A stretch of 64,000 nt of DNA from a virus (Duplodnaviria; Caudoviricetes), in the IMG/VR virus record IMGVR_UViG_3300015615_000196, positions 298,604 through 362,603 of that record. One strand, written 5' to 3'. The position numbers and the translations under genes are program-made. Position 1 is the stretch's first letter. The number at the start of each line of letters is the position of its first letter. The notes below the pieces were generated by a model. It ran no database searches, had not been told where the DNA came from, and worked only from the letters and a program-made list of their open reading frames with translations. This document shows, in pieces, positions 2,457-64,000 of the stretch.

Positions 2457-3781
2457 TGGAAAAAGTAACATTCAAATACGAAGGAGAGGACATTACAATT
2501 GAGTTGACAGACGAGTTCGCAAGAGCGCACGAATTGCTTGAAACCACTGATGAAAGTTTTTTCATAACTGGAAAGGCAGGAACTGGTAAATCAACTTTGC
2601 TCAAGTACTTTCGTTCTCAAACCAAAAAGAATGTTGCTGTTGTTGCTTTCACTGGTCTCGCTGCAATTAACGTAGACGGACAAACAATCCATTCGTTCTT
2701 TGGATTCCCAATTGGTTTCATTCATCCTAATGCAATCAAGTTCAATGATGAACTTCAATATTTGCTTAGGACATTAGATACCATTGTAGTTGATGAAGTG
2801 TCAATGCTTCGTGCAGACTTGATGGATGCAATGGATAAGTCTCTTCGTATTCATCGTGGTGTTACCAAACCTTTTGGTGGTGCACAAATGATTTTCATAG
2901 GTGACTTGTACCAATTGCCACCTATTGTAGAGAGAGACTTGACTGACGTATATGGCAAGTACTACAAGACCCCGTATTTTTTCAGTGCAGACGTTTTCTC
3001 GCACATGAGACTCCCGTATATTAATCTTGAAAAAATACATCGTCAGAACGATCCTGAGTTCATCGGTATTCTGAATGCGATTCGTGAAAGAAGGGATTTG
3101 ACTCCGGCACTTAATCGTCTCAATCAAAATGTCTCATACGACTTCAATGATTTGAAGGCCGGAGAAACAGTGGTGCTTTCAACCACGAACGAAAAGGTTA
3201 GAGAAATCAACAATTTCTTTCTTGACAATCTAAACGTTCAAGCGTATTCCTTTGCAGCAAACATCGGTGGTGACTTCGATCCCAAGTCGTATCCCACAGA
3301 GGAACGTTTGTATTTGAAGGAAGGTGCAAAGGTCATGTTCGTGAAAAACGATCCTGACAAATATTTTGTAAATGGTGACATTGGTATTGTAACAAAACTC
3401 ACTCCATTTTCAATTGAAGTGAAAGTGAAGGGAAGTACGTTGGTCGTGAAGAAACAGAAGTGGGAAAAAATTAAATACAAATACGTTCCTTCTGATCAAG
3501 AAGGTGAACGTGGATCGGTTCAGAAAACCATCGTTGGTTCATTCGAACAGTATCCTCTACGTCTTGCATGGGCGATCACCGTACACAAAAGTCAGGGTCA
3601 GACATACAACAAAGTTTTCATTGACTTGCATACTGGTAGCTTCACTTCTGGTCAAACGTATGTGGCACTTTCACGCTGCAAAACCCTTGACGGCATCAAA
3701 TTGCAACGGCCAATTCGGGAGAGCGATGTCATTCTGGATCAGCGCATTACGGAGTTCGCGAGAACCTTCCAGAGTATGTAA
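2453..3781 (+). CDS. PIF1/RecD-like SF1B DNA helicase
   Basis: Walker A GKAGTGKS, VDEVSM, GDLYQLPP, HRQ, QYPLRLAWAITVHKSQGQT, GQTYVALSR. Confidence 0.92.
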   Translation: MMEKVTFKYEGEDITIELTDEFARAHELLETTDESFFITGKAGTGKSTLLKYFRSQTKKNVAVVAFTGLAAINVDGQTIHSFFGFPIGFIHPNAIKFNDELQYLLRTLDTIVVDEVSMLRADLMDAMDKSLRIHRGVTKPFGGAQMIFIGDLYQLPPIVERDLTDVYGKYYKTPYFFSADVFSHMRLPYINLEKIHRQNDPEFIGILNAIRERRDLTPALNRLNQNVSYDFNDLKAGETVVLSTTNEKVREINNFFLDNLNVQAYSFAANIGGDFDPKSYPTEERLYLKEGAKVMFVKNDPDKYFVNGDIGIVTKLTPFSIEVKVKGSTLVVKKQKWEKIKYKYVPSDQEGERGSVQKTIVGSFEQYPLRLAWAITVHKSQGQTYNKVFIDLHTGSFTSGQTYVALSRCKTLDGIKLQRPIRESDVILDQRITEFARTFQSM

Positions 3782-4496
3782 GCAACTTTTTTCGATTTTT
3801 TCCGTATATTTGGTTCTGTAAACTACACCATTATGGGACGTGTTATTTCTTGGATTCTTTTGGTGATTATTATGATCTGTTTCTTTTTAATGCTAACAAA
3901 ATGAAACACGATTTGAACGATCAACAAGACCCGTTGCAAGCCCTGACTGAATTTTTAAAAAGTCCAGAGGGCAAGGCATCTATTGCTGCCTTTGCACAGG
4001 AGTTAGTCAACAAAGACAACATCAAAGCATCCCAATTGGCAAGATTCAATGAGAGACTTGAAAAGGGTACTTTGGAATTTGCTTCGGTTGTCGAACGAGT
4101 TTTGGAAAAATACAACTCTGACAAGTACAGAGACCATTGGTATAAGGCAGGTTATGAACCGCCTGAACCGTTGTGTTTCTTTCTCTTTTACTATGCTGAA
4201 AAGTATGGACGTGAGTGTACGAAGAAAGAGTGGAAGAAATTTGCGAATATGTTCACGGGTGACCTGTACTACTACGGAGGTTACTATTTCAATTTGATGC
4301 ACGGACAAGGATCAGTGGTACATATCACACACGAGAACGATGAAAAGTGATGGACGGTTTATACGAGATATTGCAATCATACTGGTAATCGGTATTGGTT
4401 ATCAATATCCGTTCAATAGCTGGCAGTATAATGTGAGTGTGTTCGTAAGCGGTTGTGTTTTCGTATACACTCTTTATCGAATTTTAATGTGGCTCA

Positions 4497-5129
4497 ATGC
4501 TAAAGGAAATAATTTCAAAGACGAAACTAAAGGACACTGATCTAATTGCGGTCTACCCATACGGTTCAAGAGTATACGGAACTGCAAGAAAGAATTCGGA
4601 CTATGATTTTATTGTCGTTACTCCAAAGAAAACCAACGAGCAATATTCAGACAAGTTGATCAACATCAACTTCTACACCCCGGAAGAGCATCAGAATCGT
4701 TTGAACGAGCATGAAATTTCTGCTCTGGAATGTTACTTCTTACCACAAGAACAAGTTTTGTTCGATTGCTTTCATCCATTGAATAGAACACCACGAGTAA
4801 AGCCATTCACCTTCAAACTTGATTTGAATACACTTCGTCATTCGTTATCGGCAAAGTCATCGAACAGTTGGGTCAAGGCGAAAAAGAAACTTACTGTCGA
4901 GAAAGACTACGACATTGATCTTGGACGAAAGAGTCTTTTCCATTCATTCCGAATCATCGAATACGGAAAACAAATTGCCGTACATGGAACGATTGTAAAC
5001 TATTGTTCCTGCAATGATCTCTTCAATGAAATTATGAACTGTTACACTTGGGATCAGATGTTTGATGGTTTCAAGGAACGTTACAATAAGTTGTGCACTG
5101 AATTTAGAATCTTAGCCCCGAAAGAATGA
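4497..5129 (+). CDS. Pol-beta-superfamily nucleotidyltransferase
   Basis: YGSRVYGT...SDYD (GS-x-DxD) motif. Confidence 0.75.
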   Translation: MLKEIISKTKLKDTDLIAVYPYGSRVYGTARKNSDYDFIVVTPKKTNEQYSDKLININFYTPEEHQNRLNEHEISALECYFLPQEQVLFDCFHPLNRTPRVKPFTFKLDLNTLRHSLSAKSSNSWVKAKKKLTVEKDYDIDLGRKSLFHSFRIIEYGKQIAVHGTIVNYCSCNDLFNEIMNCYTWDQMFDGFKERYNKLCTEFRILAPKE

Positions 5130-58242: not shown

Positions 58243-59034
58243 ATGGCAAGACTTGTATTACAACAAAACCTTCTTGCAGAGAACGACTACCACGAATTAA
58301 CTGGTATCTGCAATGAACACGGGATTGAAGTAGAACCTGTGACTGTCATTCCTTTCACCGAAGAACTCCCTGACTTCAAGGTTAAAGCCGACAATTTCTA
58401 CTACGGTTCCACTACGTTCATCAACAACGTATACGAGCAATTGAATAAGCCGAAGGGCATCTTCTACGATGCACAGAACTTCCAGATCAGTAACTACGTG
58501 AAGCAATGGGGTGAGCATATGCTTAACTGCAATGCAACGTTTACCACGATCAAAGAACTTGCTAATATGGACTTCGATCCAAAGAAGTTGCTGTTCATCA
58601 GACCAGATGGAGACGGTAAAGAATTCGATGGACAAGTTCTTGAATTCGAGAAGATCAAAGAATGGGATAAGAACCTTGTACTGGTCAGTGAGAAGTTCAC
58701 ACGTAATTCTCCCATACTGGTAAGCGAACCATACAACATCACAAGGGAATGGAGACTGTATGTCGTAAACGGTGAGATCATAACTGGTTCACAATACAGA
58801 GAGAACTTCAAGTTGAAGAAGAACGCATACGTTCCTGACAGTGTGATCGAATACGCTTACTACAGGATAACCGAATACTGTCCTTCACCTTGCTTTGCCA
58901 TTGACATTTGTGAGACAGGTGGTGATGCATACATAATCGAATGTGGTTGCATTAACTCCGTTGGTTTTTATGCCAGTGACAAAAAGAAACTGCTACTCGC
59001 AATACTAAAATACATCGACAATGAAACGCATTAA
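58243..59034 (+). CDS. ATP-grasp domain protein (R2K/DUF4343-like)
   Basis: YGS, HMLN, LFIRP...KEFDG, EWRLYVVNG...GSQY, FAIDI, IIECGCINSVGFY. Confidence 0.8.
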   Translation: MARLVLQQNLLAENDYHELTGICNEHGIEVEPVTVIPFTEELPDFKVKADNFYYGSTTFINNVYEQLNKPKGIFYDAQNFQISNYVKQWGEHMLNCNATFTTIKELANMDFDPKKLLFIRPDGDGKEFDGQVLEFEKIKEWDKNLVLVSEKFTRNSPILVSEPYNITREWRLYVVNGEIITGSQYRENFKLKKNAYVPDSVIEYAYYRITEYCPSPCFAIDICETGGDAYIIECGCINSVGFYASDKKKLLLAILKYIDNETH

Positions 59035-59422: not shown

Positions 59423-59803
59423 ATGGGAGACTTTAACGAATTGGGGCAAATCGCCCTCAGAATAACACAGAGCAAAGGATTCATGCTCAGTGATAATGAA
59501 GATACTGCAAGACAGATTGCACTCATGCACACGGAACTCTCCGAAGCACTTGAAGCAGATCGAATGGATAAGTACAGCAATCCATTGGATATAAACGCAG
59601 GAGAGATCATCAGTGATCCCGAACACTTTCAGAGATTCTACGAAGAAAACATAAAAGGAACTTTCGAAGAAGAAATGGCAGACATCATCATTCGTGTTCT
59701 GCAATTCTCAGCGTACAAGAAACTTGACTTGGACTCACACGTCAAATTCAAAATGCGCTACAACGCAGAACGTCCATTCAAACACGGAAACAAAAAGTAC
59801 TAA
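59423..59803 (+). CDS. MazG-like NTP pyrophosphohydrolase
   Basis: IALMHTELSEALEADR...EEEMADIIIR...KMRYN..RPFKHG.K.Y. Confidence 0.85.
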   Translation: MGDFNELGQIALRITQSKGFMLSDNEDTARQIALMHTELSEALEADRMDKYSNPLDINAGEIISDPEHFQRFYEENIKGTFEEEMADIIIRVLQFSAYKKLDLDSHVKFKMRYNAERPFKHGNKKY

Positions 59804-59804
59804 C

Positions 59805-60656
59805 ATGAACATAAGCGAAAGAGAACTTTGGTCAAAGCTATTAGCTTTCCAGATTGATGAACCCGGTACAACCTTCACGTTTGCAAAGCGATTGGCAAAT
59901 GAAAACGGTTGGAGTCTCAGGTACAGTGAACGAGTTATTCTTGAATACAAGAAGTTCCTGTTCCTCTGTGTGGTAGGCAATACAATCGTAACGCCTTCCG
60001 ATCCCGTTGACCAAGCATGGCACTTGCACATGATCTATACGAATTCGTATTGGAACAAGTTGTGCAAGCAAACCTTAAATAAGCAAATCCACCACAACCC
60101 GACTAAAGGTGGAAAGGCAGAGAACAGCAAGTACAACGATGCCTACAGCAAGACACGAGCACTGTACACGGCAACGTTCAACGAACTTCAACCATCAGAC
60201 ATTTGGCAGGGTAATGAAGAACGTTTCAGTGACATTGACTTCCAAAGAGTCAACATGAAGAAGTCATGGGTGATTCCGAAGCCAAGAATCTTCATGAAGT
60301 ACAGTATCTTCACGCTTCTTCTCGCACTCTTGTCCTTCTCATTCGTTGCAATGACAGATGCAGAAGTCTTCTGGATAGTTACCATTGCAATTGTGATTGG
60401 CATCATCCTGCTTATCATCCTGTTCAATAGTGGAGGCAACAACAAACGCAATCGAAACAACGGAAGTTCGAGTAGCAGTAGTTCGAGTGGAAGCGGTTGT
60501 AGTAGTGGTGGGTTCTTCATCATTGGTTGCAGCAGTGGCAGCAGCGATTCATCACACGGAAGTGGATGCTCGTCTGGTAGTTCTGGTTGTGGAAGTAGCG
60601 GATGCAGCAGTGGTTGTGGCGGTGGTGGCTGCGGAGGCGGTGGATGTAGTTCGTAA
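59805..60656 (+). CDS. glycine-rich-domain membrane protein with Gly/Ser/Cys tail (GRDP/TIGR04222-like)
   Basis: RLANENGWS...EYKKFLFL...TPSDPVDQAWHLH...HHNPTKGG, two TMs, tail SSGCGGGGCGGGGCSS. Confidence 0.8.
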   Translation: MNISERELWSKLLAFQIDEPGTTFTFAKRLANENGWSLRYSERVILEYKKFLFLCVVGNTIVTPSDPVDQAWHLHMIYTNSYWNKLCKQTLNKQIHHNPTKGGKAENSKYNDAYSKTRALYTATFNELQPSDIWQGNEERFSDIDFQRVNMKKSWVIPKPRIFMKYSIFTLLLALLSFSFVAMTDAEVFWIVTIAIVIGIILLIILFNSGGNNKRNRNNGSSSSSSSSGSGCSSGGFFIIGCSSGSSDSSHGSGCSSGSSGCGSSGCSSGCGGGGCGGGGCSS

Positions 60657-60958: not shown

Positions 60959-61852
60959 ATGGGACGACCTAAAAAGGTAGTTACCGATGACAAGTCAGTC
61001 ACGGAACTAAAAATCAACGCCATTCCCAACATCAGGGAATTCACAATCAAAGAACTACGTAAAGTAGAAGTACCAACTTTCCAACGATGGATAGTTGAAA
61101 AAAACAAAGTTCAACTTGGCCAATCAATTTTAGATGTCGGCATGTTAAGATGCCCGGTAATTTTCTTCATTAAATCGAAGAAAGCATACCAAATTATCGA
61201 TGGTAATCACATGAGAGAGATTATTACTGATAAAACAAATCCGAATTACAAAGACGCAGATAAAATTTCTTGCATATATCAAGAAGTTGAAACCGAAACT
61301 GAATCGGCCAATGCGTTTAAAATGCTTAATACGAAAGGTAAGCAATTAGATTGGGTTGATATTACTAATCTTTACATGTTCACTAAAGACGGTGATAATG
61401 TTTATAAAGATATTTGGATTTTATTGGGGAATCCAAAAAATCTAAATGAGGTTAGACCACCGAAAGGCTTTAGTGTACCTACCATCGTTGAAGTCATTGC
61501 TGGCGATAAAGGTAAATATCGGAATGGTAATGGCGAATTTGAACAACCGCGCCAACCACGTAAGCAACTACTTAGTTATCTTATGGCATATGCAAATGAT
61601 CATTGGAATCGATCAATTGGTATTGATGGTGCACGACCCAATGGAGCATCGATCATTGGATTTGCCAACTACTGGTTTAGAGAACAGCACCACAAAAATT
61701 TTGGCGAAGCAGATTTTCTTGATTTAATCACTGAAATTTTTGTGCAAAAAAGTAGTCAGTTGGAATCCGGTGAATTAGTTATCAACAGGGAAAATGCAGG
61801 AAAATTGCTTCATAAATTAATGCAGCAAAAATTCCAACCAGAAAACGTTTAA
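60959..61852 (+). CDS. ParB/Srx-like N-terminal domain protein
   Basis: PTFQRW, SIL..G..CPV, YQIIDGNH, F..LN..GK; AT-rich; own terminator. Confidence 0.6.
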   Translation: MGRPKKVVTDDKSVTELKINAIPNIREFTIKELRKVEVPTFQRWIVEKNKVQLGQSILDVGMLRCPVIFFIKSKKAYQIIDGNHMREIITDKTNPNYKDADKISCIYQEVETETESANAFKMLNTKGKQLDWVDITNLYMFTKDGDNVYKDIWILLGNPKNLNEVRPPKGFSVPTIVEVIAGDKGKYRNGNGEFEQPRQPRKQLLSYLMAYANDHWNRSIGIDGARPNGASIIGFANYWFREQHHKNFGEADFLDLITEIFVQKSSQLESGELVINRENAGKLLHKLMQQKFQPENV

Positions 61853-61886: not shown

Positions 61887-62055
61887 AAGACTTAAAATAA
61901 ATTATGGACAAGGTTGAAATGTTATTCGCAGACATCTTAAAATGGACTTTGATCGTATTGGTCATTGCCTTTGTTGTCTGTGTGGTAGTGTAAGTTTTTA
62001 CTGTTACTACCAAATCAATAGTTATTCGTGCAGTCTACCTAAACACAACAAAAAA

Positions 62056-63447
62056 ATGAATCAGAATTTTACATTCGTCAGAAAAATCAAGTTGGGTATT
62101 ATTAATGACACCAAAGAAGGTAAAAATGCTGATTATGAAAGAATGAGAAGCATCCAGTATCATAGCTGGAAACTTGCCAATCGAATAGTACAAGGTCAAT
62201 TCTTCTTACGATTCTTTCCCGAAGTGATACTTTTTAAACACCCCGATACTTATGAACTATACAAAGAGATACAAGGTAGAATAACCAAGATCAGTCAGAT
62301 TAAAAAGAAAACGGATTTGGACAAGGCAGAACTGAAATCCTGCTATGCCCAAATTAAAGACATTCAGAAACAGTTCGAGATTGAAATCGAAGAATACCGT
62401 AGAAATGGGTCAATCCAGAATTTCACGTATGCATTCAACGCTGACGAATACCGTGATCTTATTCCATCTACGGTTCGTGCATCATTGAATCAAAAGGTAT
62501 TCAAAGATTTCAATACCAGATATAAAAACTTCTTGCAAGGTAATGCATCAATTCAAACGTACAAGAAAACGTTGGCCGTCCCTTTTCAAGGGAAAAGTAT
62601 TATTGATCTAAAATTAGAAAAGGAAGGGTTTACTTTTAATTTATTTGGAATTAAGTTCCTGTGCTTGCTTGGTAAGGATGGAAATAATACCAAACACATT
62701 CTCACCCACTTGACAAATAAAACCGATGAATTCAAACTCAATGATTCATCATTCATGTTTAAGGACGGGGAATTGTTCATGAATATGAACTTATCCTCGA
62801 ACGTGGTGAAGGTAAAGAAAAACCCGAATATTGTTGCGGGTATCGATCTTGGTGTTAGTCGCATGGCTACGATGGTCATTCGTGACCGTTCCTCCGATTC
62901 CTCCACCAATTATATCGAACGTAGATTCTTCGGGGATGATTCGTTAATGAAACGTGCGATGTTCTACCAGAACAAAAGATCAAATGTTAATCGTAGCTAC
63001 CTGACCAAAACAGGAAAAGGAAGACTTCATGCAGTTAAATCAAAAAATCAGAATCTTGATAAGTTCGCAAGATTTCGCGATAACTTCAATAAAAAGATTG
63101 CTCATGATATAATACAAAGATGCATTGCAAACAACGTATCGGTTATCGTAATGGAGGATTTAAGTAAAATCGGAGAACTTAATTTCTTTATGAAGAATTG
63201 GCCTTATTTTGATCTTCAAACCAAGATTGAAAACAAAGCCAAAGAATATGGAATTAAGGTTGAGTATGTTGACCCCGCATATACCTCACAAACATGTCCT
63301 GCTTGTGGACATGTGGGTAAAGAAAACAGGGAGATTCAAAAGCACTTTGAATGTAAATCCTGTGGTGTGAAGGGTAATGCTGATGTAATCGGAGCCATAA
63401 ATATTGCCAACAAAATTCCGATTGAATCATTGCAAGTCTCAGTTTAA
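62056..63447 (+). CDS. cas12f: Cas12f-like / TnpB-family RNA-guided nuclease (~463 aa; start reassigned to ATG 62056)
   Basis: RuvC-I AGIDLG, RuvC-II VIVMEDL, WPYFDLQTKIENKA..YGI.V..VDPAYTSQTCPACG, CKSCG zinc ribbon, RuvC-III NADVIGAINIA; directly upstream of a CRISPR array. Confidence 0.85.
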   Translation: MNQNFTFVRKIKLGIINDTKEGKNADYERMRSIQYHSWKLANRIVQGQFFLRFFPEVILFKHPDTYELYKEIQGRITKISQIKKKTDLDKAELKSCYAQIKDIQKQFEIEIEEYRRNGSIQNFTYAFNADEYRDLIPSTVRASLNQKVFKDFNTRYKNFLQGNASIQTYKKTLAVPFQGKSIIDLKLEKEGFTFNLFGIKFLCLLGKDGNNTKHILTHLTNKTDEFKLNDSSFMFKDGELFMNMNLSSNVVKVKKNPNIVAGIDLGVSRMATMVIRDRSSDSSTNYIERRFFGDDSLMKRAMFYQNKRSNVNRSYLTKTGKGRLHAVKSKNQNLDKFARFRDNFNKKIAHDIIQRCIANNVSVIVMEDLSKIGELNFFMKNWPYFDLQTKIENKAKEYGIKVEYVDPAYTSQTCPACGHVGKENREIQKHFECKSCGVKGNADVIGAINIANKIPIESLQVSV

Positions 63448-63499
63448 TTCTGTTATTTTGTTTTAAGAAAATTCGTTCATTGAAATATTATTTTATCCT

Positions 63500-63650
63500 C
63501 TTACCAATTTGGTACGAGAATAAAAAGCGTTAGTTGTGTTTAAATACTCCCGCTTATGGGATGAAACGCAAAGGTGAGGTTGTAACATTGAATAATTATC
63601 TACTATTGTGGTAGATGTTATAACACTCGCTAATACCTTTTTAATTTTTA
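63500..63650 (+). ncRNA. putative tracrRNA
   Basis: Anti-repeat TACCTTTTTAATTT (63634-63647) pairs 13 of 14 with repeat nt 15-28 (two G-U pairs); GTTGTG (63533-63538) complements the repeat 3' end CACAAC; intervening stems. Boundaries approximate. Confidence 0.65.
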
Positions 63651-63697
63651 AAATTGAGTTGAAACGCTCAGATATTCAGAGGATTAATTCAGATTGA

Positions 63698-63996
63698 GTT
63701 GTTGATCTATTGAATTTGAAAGGTAGTCACAACATCGACTATACGTTGACATCCGTGTTAGTGGTTGTTGATCTATTGAATTTGAAAGGTAGTCACAACT
63801 TGACCTTGTTGTTCAAACTAAAGTCAAATGTTGTTGATCTATTGAATTTGAAAGGTAGTCACAACGAGCGTATCAGTATCCATACAGCAATGAAGTTGTT
63901 GATCTATTGAATTTGAAAGGTAGTCACAACTGGATCAATATAGGTCGTTAGGAAAAACATGTTGTTGATCTATTGAATTTGAAAGGTAGTCACAAC
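63698..63996 (+). CRISPR. CRISPR array: 5 identical 36-nt repeats and 4 complete spacers, likely continuing past the window
   Basis: Repeat GTTGTTGATCTATTGAATTTGAAAGGTAGTCACAAC at 63698, 63764, 63830, 63895 and 63961; unique spacers of 30, 30, 29 and 30 nt. Confidence 0.98.
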
Positions 63997-64000
63997 ACAT

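Follow-up and report, generated by a model that had tools for sequence, protein, structure and literature searches.

TnpB is the evolutionary ancestor of Cas12f, the effector of type V-F CRISPR-Cas systems. Huge phages carry new V-U variants and V-F subtypes, almost always without Cas1, Cas2, and Cas4 and with the catalytic residues kept (Al-Shayeb et al. 2020, PMC7162821), and many viral effectors from landfill megaphages have been placed near V-F1/V-U3 (PMC12607003). Bacteroidota dCas12f proteins are nuclease-dead, C-terminally truncated, linked to sigma factors, and lack a trans-activating CRISPR RNA (tracrRNA); dCas12f-sigmaE systems are RNA-guided transcription activators that use a single chimeric guide, and most of them lie without an array beside rpoE (PMC12259090). 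Here we describe a Cas12f-type locus in the 362,603-bp IMG/VR record of an uncultured phage (IMGVR_UViG_3300015615_000196). The window, that is the whole stretch of DNA analyzed, comprises the final 64 kb of this record (64,000 nucleotides (nt); positions 298,604 to 362,603). The locus is very probably a phage-borne type V-F CRISPR-Cas interference module of the Cas12f1 (V-U3) branch, as predicted from its gene, its RNA, and its array, and is a divergent example of the effector-only type V-F/V-U loci already published for huge phages.

The effector gene is intact. Its product, P0001, is a stop-free translation of 463 amino acids (aa), and the alignment of homologues favors a start at 62056 over an upstream in-frame ATG at 61942. 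P0001 carries the three acidic residues of the RuvC domain in the motifs GIDLG (D264), MEDL (E367), and NADV (D443), a short stretch inserted behind RuvC-I at about residues 278-291, and a zinc ribbon in which C414-x2-C417 is combined with C433-x2-C436. The D/E/D triad and the four cysteines are invariant in 8/8 members of the clade that P0001 forms with its seven close relatives, and also in four further homologues from three neighboring lineages. Among PADLOC profiles, P0001 matches Cas12u3 (E-value 3e-83; residues 7-454 aligned to positions 3-389 of a 398-position profile) and Cas12f PDLC01699 (2e-82), both over the full length, while Pfam identifies the Cas12f1-like TNB domain PF07282 (1e-23) and also matches OrfB_IS605 (PF01385). 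The best sequence match in the Protein Data Bank (PDB) is CnCas12f1 (8hr5, 5.6e-36), in an alignment that spans the N-terminal VRKIKL strand, followed by Os, Al3, As, Sp, and Un1 Cas12f together with a nuclease-dead Cas12f (9n9c, 1.4e-20); TnpB does not appear before 1.8e-9. An AlphaFold2 model of P0001 (mean predicted local distance difference test score 77.7; predicted template modeling score (pTM) 0.48) gave the same ranking in Foldseek, where each of the 20 best matches is a Cas12f or dCas12f structure (4.9e-23 to 5.5e-14) and TnpB structures follow at 8e-13 and weaker, although the TM-scores are just 0.4-0.5 and the domain packing of the model is uncertain. A preliminary description of the sequence had reported a ~463-aa open reading frame (ORF) with these RuvC motifs and a zinc ribbon and had called it Cas12f-like; the translation, the profile matches, and the sequence and fold rankings, with Cas12f first in both, agree with this. 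Its comparison of the N-terminus with Bacteroidota-type proteins is not supported, as the VRKIKL motif is not specific to Bacteroidota and is also present in Clostridium CnCas12f1.

An RNA of about 180 nt that is both structured and conserved occupies the interval between the gene and the array and begins about 30 nt past the stop codon. In seven clade loci, the sequence downstream of the stop codon consists of conserved blocks alternating with variable stretches. No + strand ORF of at least 40 aa is found in the interval, and Rfam has no family matching the RNA. The structure was assessed by per-locus folds and by a count over 22 hand-set pairs in each of four loci. In the latter, 88/88 cells pair and 10 of the 22 pairs have changed on both sides; this degree of pairing and covariation is reached by 0/500 shuffles, and partners slid by 1-3 columns pair in 31-47% of cases. 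The fold of the window RNA by itself beats 200/200 shuffles (z = -3.7). In the per-locus folds, the stem of the long hairpin H3 differs in sequence in every locus yet always pairs. Since the structure is kept through compensatory changes, the RNA appears to be under ongoing selection.

Two anti-repeats within this RNA, both invariant and single-stranded in the clade, are complementary to the 3' half of the repeat (Table 1). Three more distant lineages, represented by contigs L138, L136, and L134, likewise have a 36-nt repeat, 29-30-nt spacers, and a 5' GUUCUUUGA motif, and their RNAs follow one plan: a loop-borne hexamer, a hairpin closed by UGAG...CUCA, and then a short segment. L136 and L134 are phage-like contigs, and L138 is a contig with Bacteroidota-type chromosomal genes. 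The equivalents of anti-repeat 1 stand at the same position in all three and complement their own, different repeats. Because both anti-repeats change together with the repeat across four gene lineages, the RNA between gene and array is best read as the tracrRNA that the preliminary description had proposed, and the pairing pattern corresponds to the dual-guide logic of Cas12f, as far as comparison of sequences can establish it. The 3' half of the repeat (TTTGAAAGG...) is retained in L010, L121, and the decayed repeats described below, while the 5' half drifts. From this pattern, the mature guide should consist of the last 16-19 nt of the repeat followed by the downstream spacer. In L138 (7411-7960), a 469-aa relative is carried on the same contig as CHU_C, TonB/ExbBD, RecG, and MnmE genes; the whole gene-to-array interval there is 118 nt, and no adaptation genes lie within 6 kb of the locus.

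The array begins 250 nt past the stop codon, as had been described, and has spacers of 29-30 nt. The last 48 nt of the record are identical to its first 48 nt; in them, one complete 36-nt repeat stands between 8 nt of one spacer and 4 nt of the following one. The "direct terminal repeats" flagged for the record are thus a 48-nt assembly overlap within the CRISPR array and give no evidence of true terminal repeats; the genome assembled as a circle that was broken inside the array, and the locus must therefore be read across the junction. Contig positions 9-599 hold eight more repeat copies with 0-1 mismatch each, and beyond 599, to about 890, there are about five increasingly degenerate copies. 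The whole array thus comprises about 18 units, of which about 13 are intact and about 5 decayed, with about 17 spacers. Decay is confined to the gene-distal end, and therefore the leader is on the gene side. At the contig start (L009), a truncated repeat that keeps just its final 18 nt is found along with 19-21-nt spacers (337-354, 545-563), which suggests internal deletions through recombination between repeats.

Table 1. Predicted features of the locus (positions in the window) and repeat pairing in four lineages.
Feature	Position	Strand	Description
cas12f-type effector gene (P0001, 463 aa)	62056..63447	+	N-terminal recognition lobe, split RuvC, C-terminal zinc-ribbon TNB domain
tracrRNA 5' motif GUUCWUUGAAAUAYUA	63475..63490	+	Invariant in seven clade loci; recognizable in L136, L138, and L134
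tracrRNA hairpin H1	63491..63523	+	Folds in six loci with unrelated sequences; deleted in L121
tracrRNA domain P2	63527..63569	+	GCGUU/AACGC stem around UCCC/GGGA hairpin (GUCC/GGAC in L010)
Anti-repeat 2, GUUGUG	63533..63538	+	Complements the last six repeat bases, CACAAC; GUUGCA where the repeat ends UGCAAC (L136, L134)
tracrRNA long hairpin H3	63574..63630	+	13 bp counted, 8 with compensatory changes among four loci
Anti-repeat 1, UACCUUUU	63634..63641	+	Pairs with repeat bases 21-28, GAAAGGUA
U-rich tracrRNA tail and array leader	63642..63697	+	Boundary inferred
Leader-proximal array	63698..64000	+	Five identical 36-nt repeats, four complete spacers; continues at contig positions 1-~890
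48-nt overlap	63953..64000		Equals contig positions 1-48; sequence identity of the record ends
Pairing in the window clade			Loop hexamer GUUGUG with repeat end CACAAC; post-hairpin segment UACCUUUU with GAAAGGUA
Pairing in L138			Loop hexamer GUUGUG with repeat end CACAAC; post-hairpin segment CCUUUCA with UGAAAGG
Pairing in L136			Loop hexamer GUUGCA with repeat end UGCAAC; post-hairpin segment CAACCAAA with UUUGGUUG
Pairing in L134			Loop hexamer GUUGCA with repeat end UGCAAC; post-hairpin segment UCUCAAAU with AUUUGAGA

The absence of an adaptation module and of a transposase, which had been noted for the sequence upstream of the gene, extends to the whole 362,603-bp record. Six-frame searches found no Cas1, Cas2, or Cas4 and no Y1 TnpA (Y1_Tnp); these searches did not extend to the IS607 TnpA, a serine recombinase. 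The gene with the PF07282 TNB domain is present in a single copy in the whole record, and no sigma-factor domain is found in the ORFs that flank cas12f. The spacers have no match in the genome of the phage itself and hence reveal no self-targets.

The clade is rare. Among 5.8 billion cluster representatives, a word-indexed search recovered seven close relatives at 53-84% identity, after which identity falls to ~30%. In a full HMMER profile search of 1.84 billion representatives, the clade accounts for one full-length cluster at 50% identity (813 bits), the full-length protein that ranks next has 261 bits, and 336 proteins lie below 1e-30. In all, the clade amounts to eight sequences among about 15 billion proteins, mostly on phage contigs. 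A single-protein relative search of IMG/VR found no related loci, a 15-mer scan of IMG/VR with the tracrRNA motif gave chance matches only, and a clade-alignment search of IMG/VR and of metagenome and genome collections recovered only ~30%-identical relatives. Most of these, from viral, metagenome, and Bacillota genome collections, adjoin arrays, including the Cas12f locus of Syntrophomonas palmitatica. In two trees, in which TnpB was sampled from the search hits only, the eight sequences form a single clade with a long stem (100% support in the Shimodaira-Hasegawa-like approximate likelihood ratio test (SH-aLRT)). This clade shares no more than ~31% identity with its nearest outside relatives and falls inside a Cas12f1-like superclade that excludes the sampled TnpBs (99% SH-aLRT); its place among about ten deep lineages is not settled by the two trees. 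This position, together with a guide-RNA plan common to the neighboring lineages, argues against the independent TnpB-to-Cas12 transition that the preliminary description had considered.

Contigs L010, L012, L120, and L121 have a few other genes in common with the phage, at 36-48% amino acid identity and in non-syntenic positions, and in L011 the effector is the sole gene in common. From this, the clade's vehicles seem to be large phages that are distantly related to one another. A large number of the carrier contigs terminate within the tracrRNA or the array. The 3' ends of L011, L012, L013, and L120 fall in the conserved tracrRNA and not in the array; it is possible that the assembly graph branches where co-occurring variants have this sequence in common. 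Por_Secre_tail, a potential clue to the host, has no match in the phage genome, and none in the control genomes either.

The solved proteins of the V-U3 branch (CnCas12f1, 8HR5; AsCas12f1, 7WJU/8J12; SpCas12f1, 9I8Y; Os/Al3Cas12f, 9NZ*) are the most similar to P0001. They have in common a size of about 420-500 aa, the domain order, the RuvC D/E/D residues, the CxxC..CxxC TNB domain, and the N-terminal VRKIKL-type strand, and their loci likewise have a tracrRNA between gene and array, two short duplexes on the 3' half of the repeat, and no adaptation genes. Unlike these systems, which lie on Bacillota chromosomes, the phage clade is found on jumbo-phage-like genomes and forms its own long-stemmed branch, and P0001 is only 20-29% identical to any solved Cas12f. 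Un1Cas12f1 (Cas14a), whose repeat has GTTG...CAAC as its two ends, has an N-terminal zinc-finger domain, which is not seen in P0001. Its match to P0001 is much weaker (E-value about 1e-20) and covers the C-terminal half only. As in Un1Cas12f1 (7C7L, 7L48), a segment inside the tracrRNA pairs with the last repeat bases, and its 3' region pairs with a part of the repeat that lies upstream of them. Like the V-F/V-U loci of huge phages (PMC7162821; PMC12607003), the locus is effector-only and places a hypercompact type V effector with conserved catalytic residues by a compact array; beyond those loci, the tracrRNA and its pairing scheme are here defined by covariation.

Expression, dimerization, protospacer adjacent motif (PAM), cleavage, and targets we infer as follows. 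Transcription of the + strand would give the cas12f mRNA, the ~180-nt tracrRNA, and a precursor CRISPR RNA (crRNA) from the gene-proximal leader. In the 3' half of each repeat, the tracrRNA segments GUUGUG and UACCUUUU would then anneal to CACAAC and GAAAGGUA, respectively, and the resulting dual guide would carry a repeat handle of about 16-19 nt ahead of the downstream spacer. If P0001 behaves like the Cas12f proteins in solved complexes, it would load this guide, probably as an asymmetric dimer, find matching double-stranded DNA flanked by a PAM, and cut it with a single RuvC site. Because the phage is without Cas1, Cas2, and Cas4, its spacer set would be either inherited or supplied in trans. 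The most likely targets would be rival phages or other mobile elements that occupy the host together with the phage, with host genes as less likely targets.

The interference reading draws directly on the integrity of the gene, its family membership, the structure of the RNA, the anti-repeat logic, the polarity of the array, and the absence of adaptation genes. Several results speak against it. No protospacers are found in INPHARED or PLSDB, exact 22-nt seeds of spacers 1-5, the five newest, do not occur in IMG/VR, and the spacers of the phage array and of L134, L136, and L138 give no cross-matches with the collected loci and genome. A duplex-energy scan for an anti-repeat yields nothing above the shuffled background; with 6 and 8 bp, both duplexes are short, they are rich in A/U, and the sequence support for them is comparative only. 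Owing to the low pTM, the domain arrangement of the modeled P0001 is also uncertain. We give very little weight to the view that P0001 binds without cutting and so represses or regulates, under RNA guidance, genes of the host or of competitors, a role put forward for a phage 'dCas14' and demonstrated for Bacteroidota dCas12f. Nuclease-dead Cas12f relatives do exist, as had been pointed out (PMC12259090), and one of them, dCas12f (9N9C), belongs to the same superfamily as P0001 (sequence E-value as given above; Foldseek 2.8e-18), while a huge-phage Cas14 that is missing a catalytic residue has been proposed as a repressor (PMC7162821). P0001, in contrast, keeps the three RuvC acidic residues and the zinc ribbon, invariant throughout its clade, and unlike the truncated dCas12f-sigmaE proteins it has a full-length C-terminus with D443, a tracrRNA, an array, and flanking ORFs without a sigma-factor domain. 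That P0001 is a TnpB of the IS200/IS605 or IS607 type, guided by an omega-RNA and adjoining an unrelated array, is the least credible reading and has largely been refuted already. P0001 does have the RuvC and TNB core in common with IS200/IS605 TnpB (ISDra2, 8H1J; ISFba1, 8IAZ), its sole NCBIfam match is the generic guided_TnpB subfamily (177 bits), and its relatives bear the PHROGs label 'transposase'. However, it reaches only 48 bits with the IS200_TnpB model (cut-off 425) and 39 bits with IS607_TnpB (cut-off 350), carries an extra N-terminal region of about 100 aa, and stands apart from the TnpB hits at 99% SH-aLRT rather than nesting among them. Nor does the setting resemble that of a TnpB, as the gene is single-copy, Y1 TnpA is missing from the genome, no transposon ends are seen, and in place of an omega-RNA there is a dual guide with an array, the downstream RNA pairing and co-varying with the repeat.

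The array itself might work chiefly with an effector of the host and not with P0001, such as a Cas13b of Bacteroidota or a Cas12f that is encoded on the chromosome and has a similar repeat, although we consider this most improbable. The chromosomal L138 repeat differs from that of the phage at just 2 of the last 19 nt. A further resemblance is to the second array of Flavobacterium columnare, which is of type VI-B. That array has 36-nt repeats and 30-nt spacers (PMC5395568, Table 4), and its repeat is identical to the phage repeat at 22/36 bases, and at 15/19 in the 3' half; phages with host-like repeats are also known (PMC7162821). This likeness may reflect common adaptation requirements or a common descent of repeats in the phylum, both of which are speculative. 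The phage has a tracrRNA of its own with both anti-repeats, and since the repeat co-varies with this Cas12f tracrRNA across lineages, the array is unlikely to be that of another effector. Gene, tracrRNA, and array are moreover co-inherited in seven loci, and any cross-use would add to, and not replace, use by the phage effector. Decay into a non-functional relic is an even fainter prospect. The distal third of the array is indeed degenerate, with the truncated repeat and the 19-21-nt spacers, and the adaptation module is absent; yet the gene shows no damage and its catalytic residues are invariant, twelve repeats deviate by no more than one base, and the tracrRNA structure is maintained by compensatory changes. 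A phage-borne interference module thus remains our preferred interpretation.

A broader reading, which we consider unlikely as a whole, is that a single pool of compatible guides may unite the phage lineage with Cas12f loci on Bacteroidota chromosomes, L138 being one example, with cross-loading and refill in trans. The phage clade and L138 have identical anti-repeat segments and near-identical repeat handles, and their 36-nt repeats and 30-nt spacers are like those of Flavobacterium VI-B arrays. For VI-B arrays, it has been proposed that an adaptation module of the host refills them in trans. If the pool existed, the phage effector would load host-made crRNAs, or the reverse, and a host adaptation module would refill the adaptation-less arrays in trans; the phage array would then be a heritable copy of host-style immunity aimed at rival elements.

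Other genes lie around the CRISPR locus. In the decayed array tail, there appears to sit a gene for a 209-aa GmrSD_N/DUF262 protein (L009 898-1527; Pfam 1e-15, phrog_1583 2e-31), flanked at about 886-897 and 1522-1534 by remnants of the repeat that end in AGGTAATCACAA(T/C). The stop codon of this gene is overlapped by the second of these remnants, right behind which the next ORF opens with its ATG (1535). Immediately before cas12f, an ORF (window 60959-61852, +) has an IIDGNH motif and a weak GmrSD_N/ParB-like match (4e-4, below the cut-off), and in L136 a ParB_N protein (3721-4893) follows the array. These three ParB-fold neighbors, on both sides of the locus and in L136, show no pairwise similarity. 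Farther upstream in the window, a 320-aa ORF without a family match (59694-60656, +) has a hydrophobic segment and then a long tail of only Ser, Gly, and Cys (...SSSSSSSGSGCSSGG...GCGGGGCGGGGCSS), and an R2K-clade ATP-grasp protein (58243-59034, +; PF14243 4e-18, PF18299 7.5e-17) is encoded 3 kb upstream of the CRISPR locus.

The locus leaves the current picture of CRISPR evolution unchanged. It provides a fully delimited and very small predicted RNA-guided nuclease system, with a 463-aa effector, a ~180-nt tracrRNA of defined fold, and a 16-19-nt handle, and its divergence from the solved Cas12f proteins makes it a candidate for PAM profiling and for tests in compact genome editing. The rare clade to which it belongs is further evidence for the retention of effector-only type V systems by jumbo phages, and the co-variation of anti-repeats and repeats across the four lineages is a natural record of the evolution of the Cas12f dual guide.

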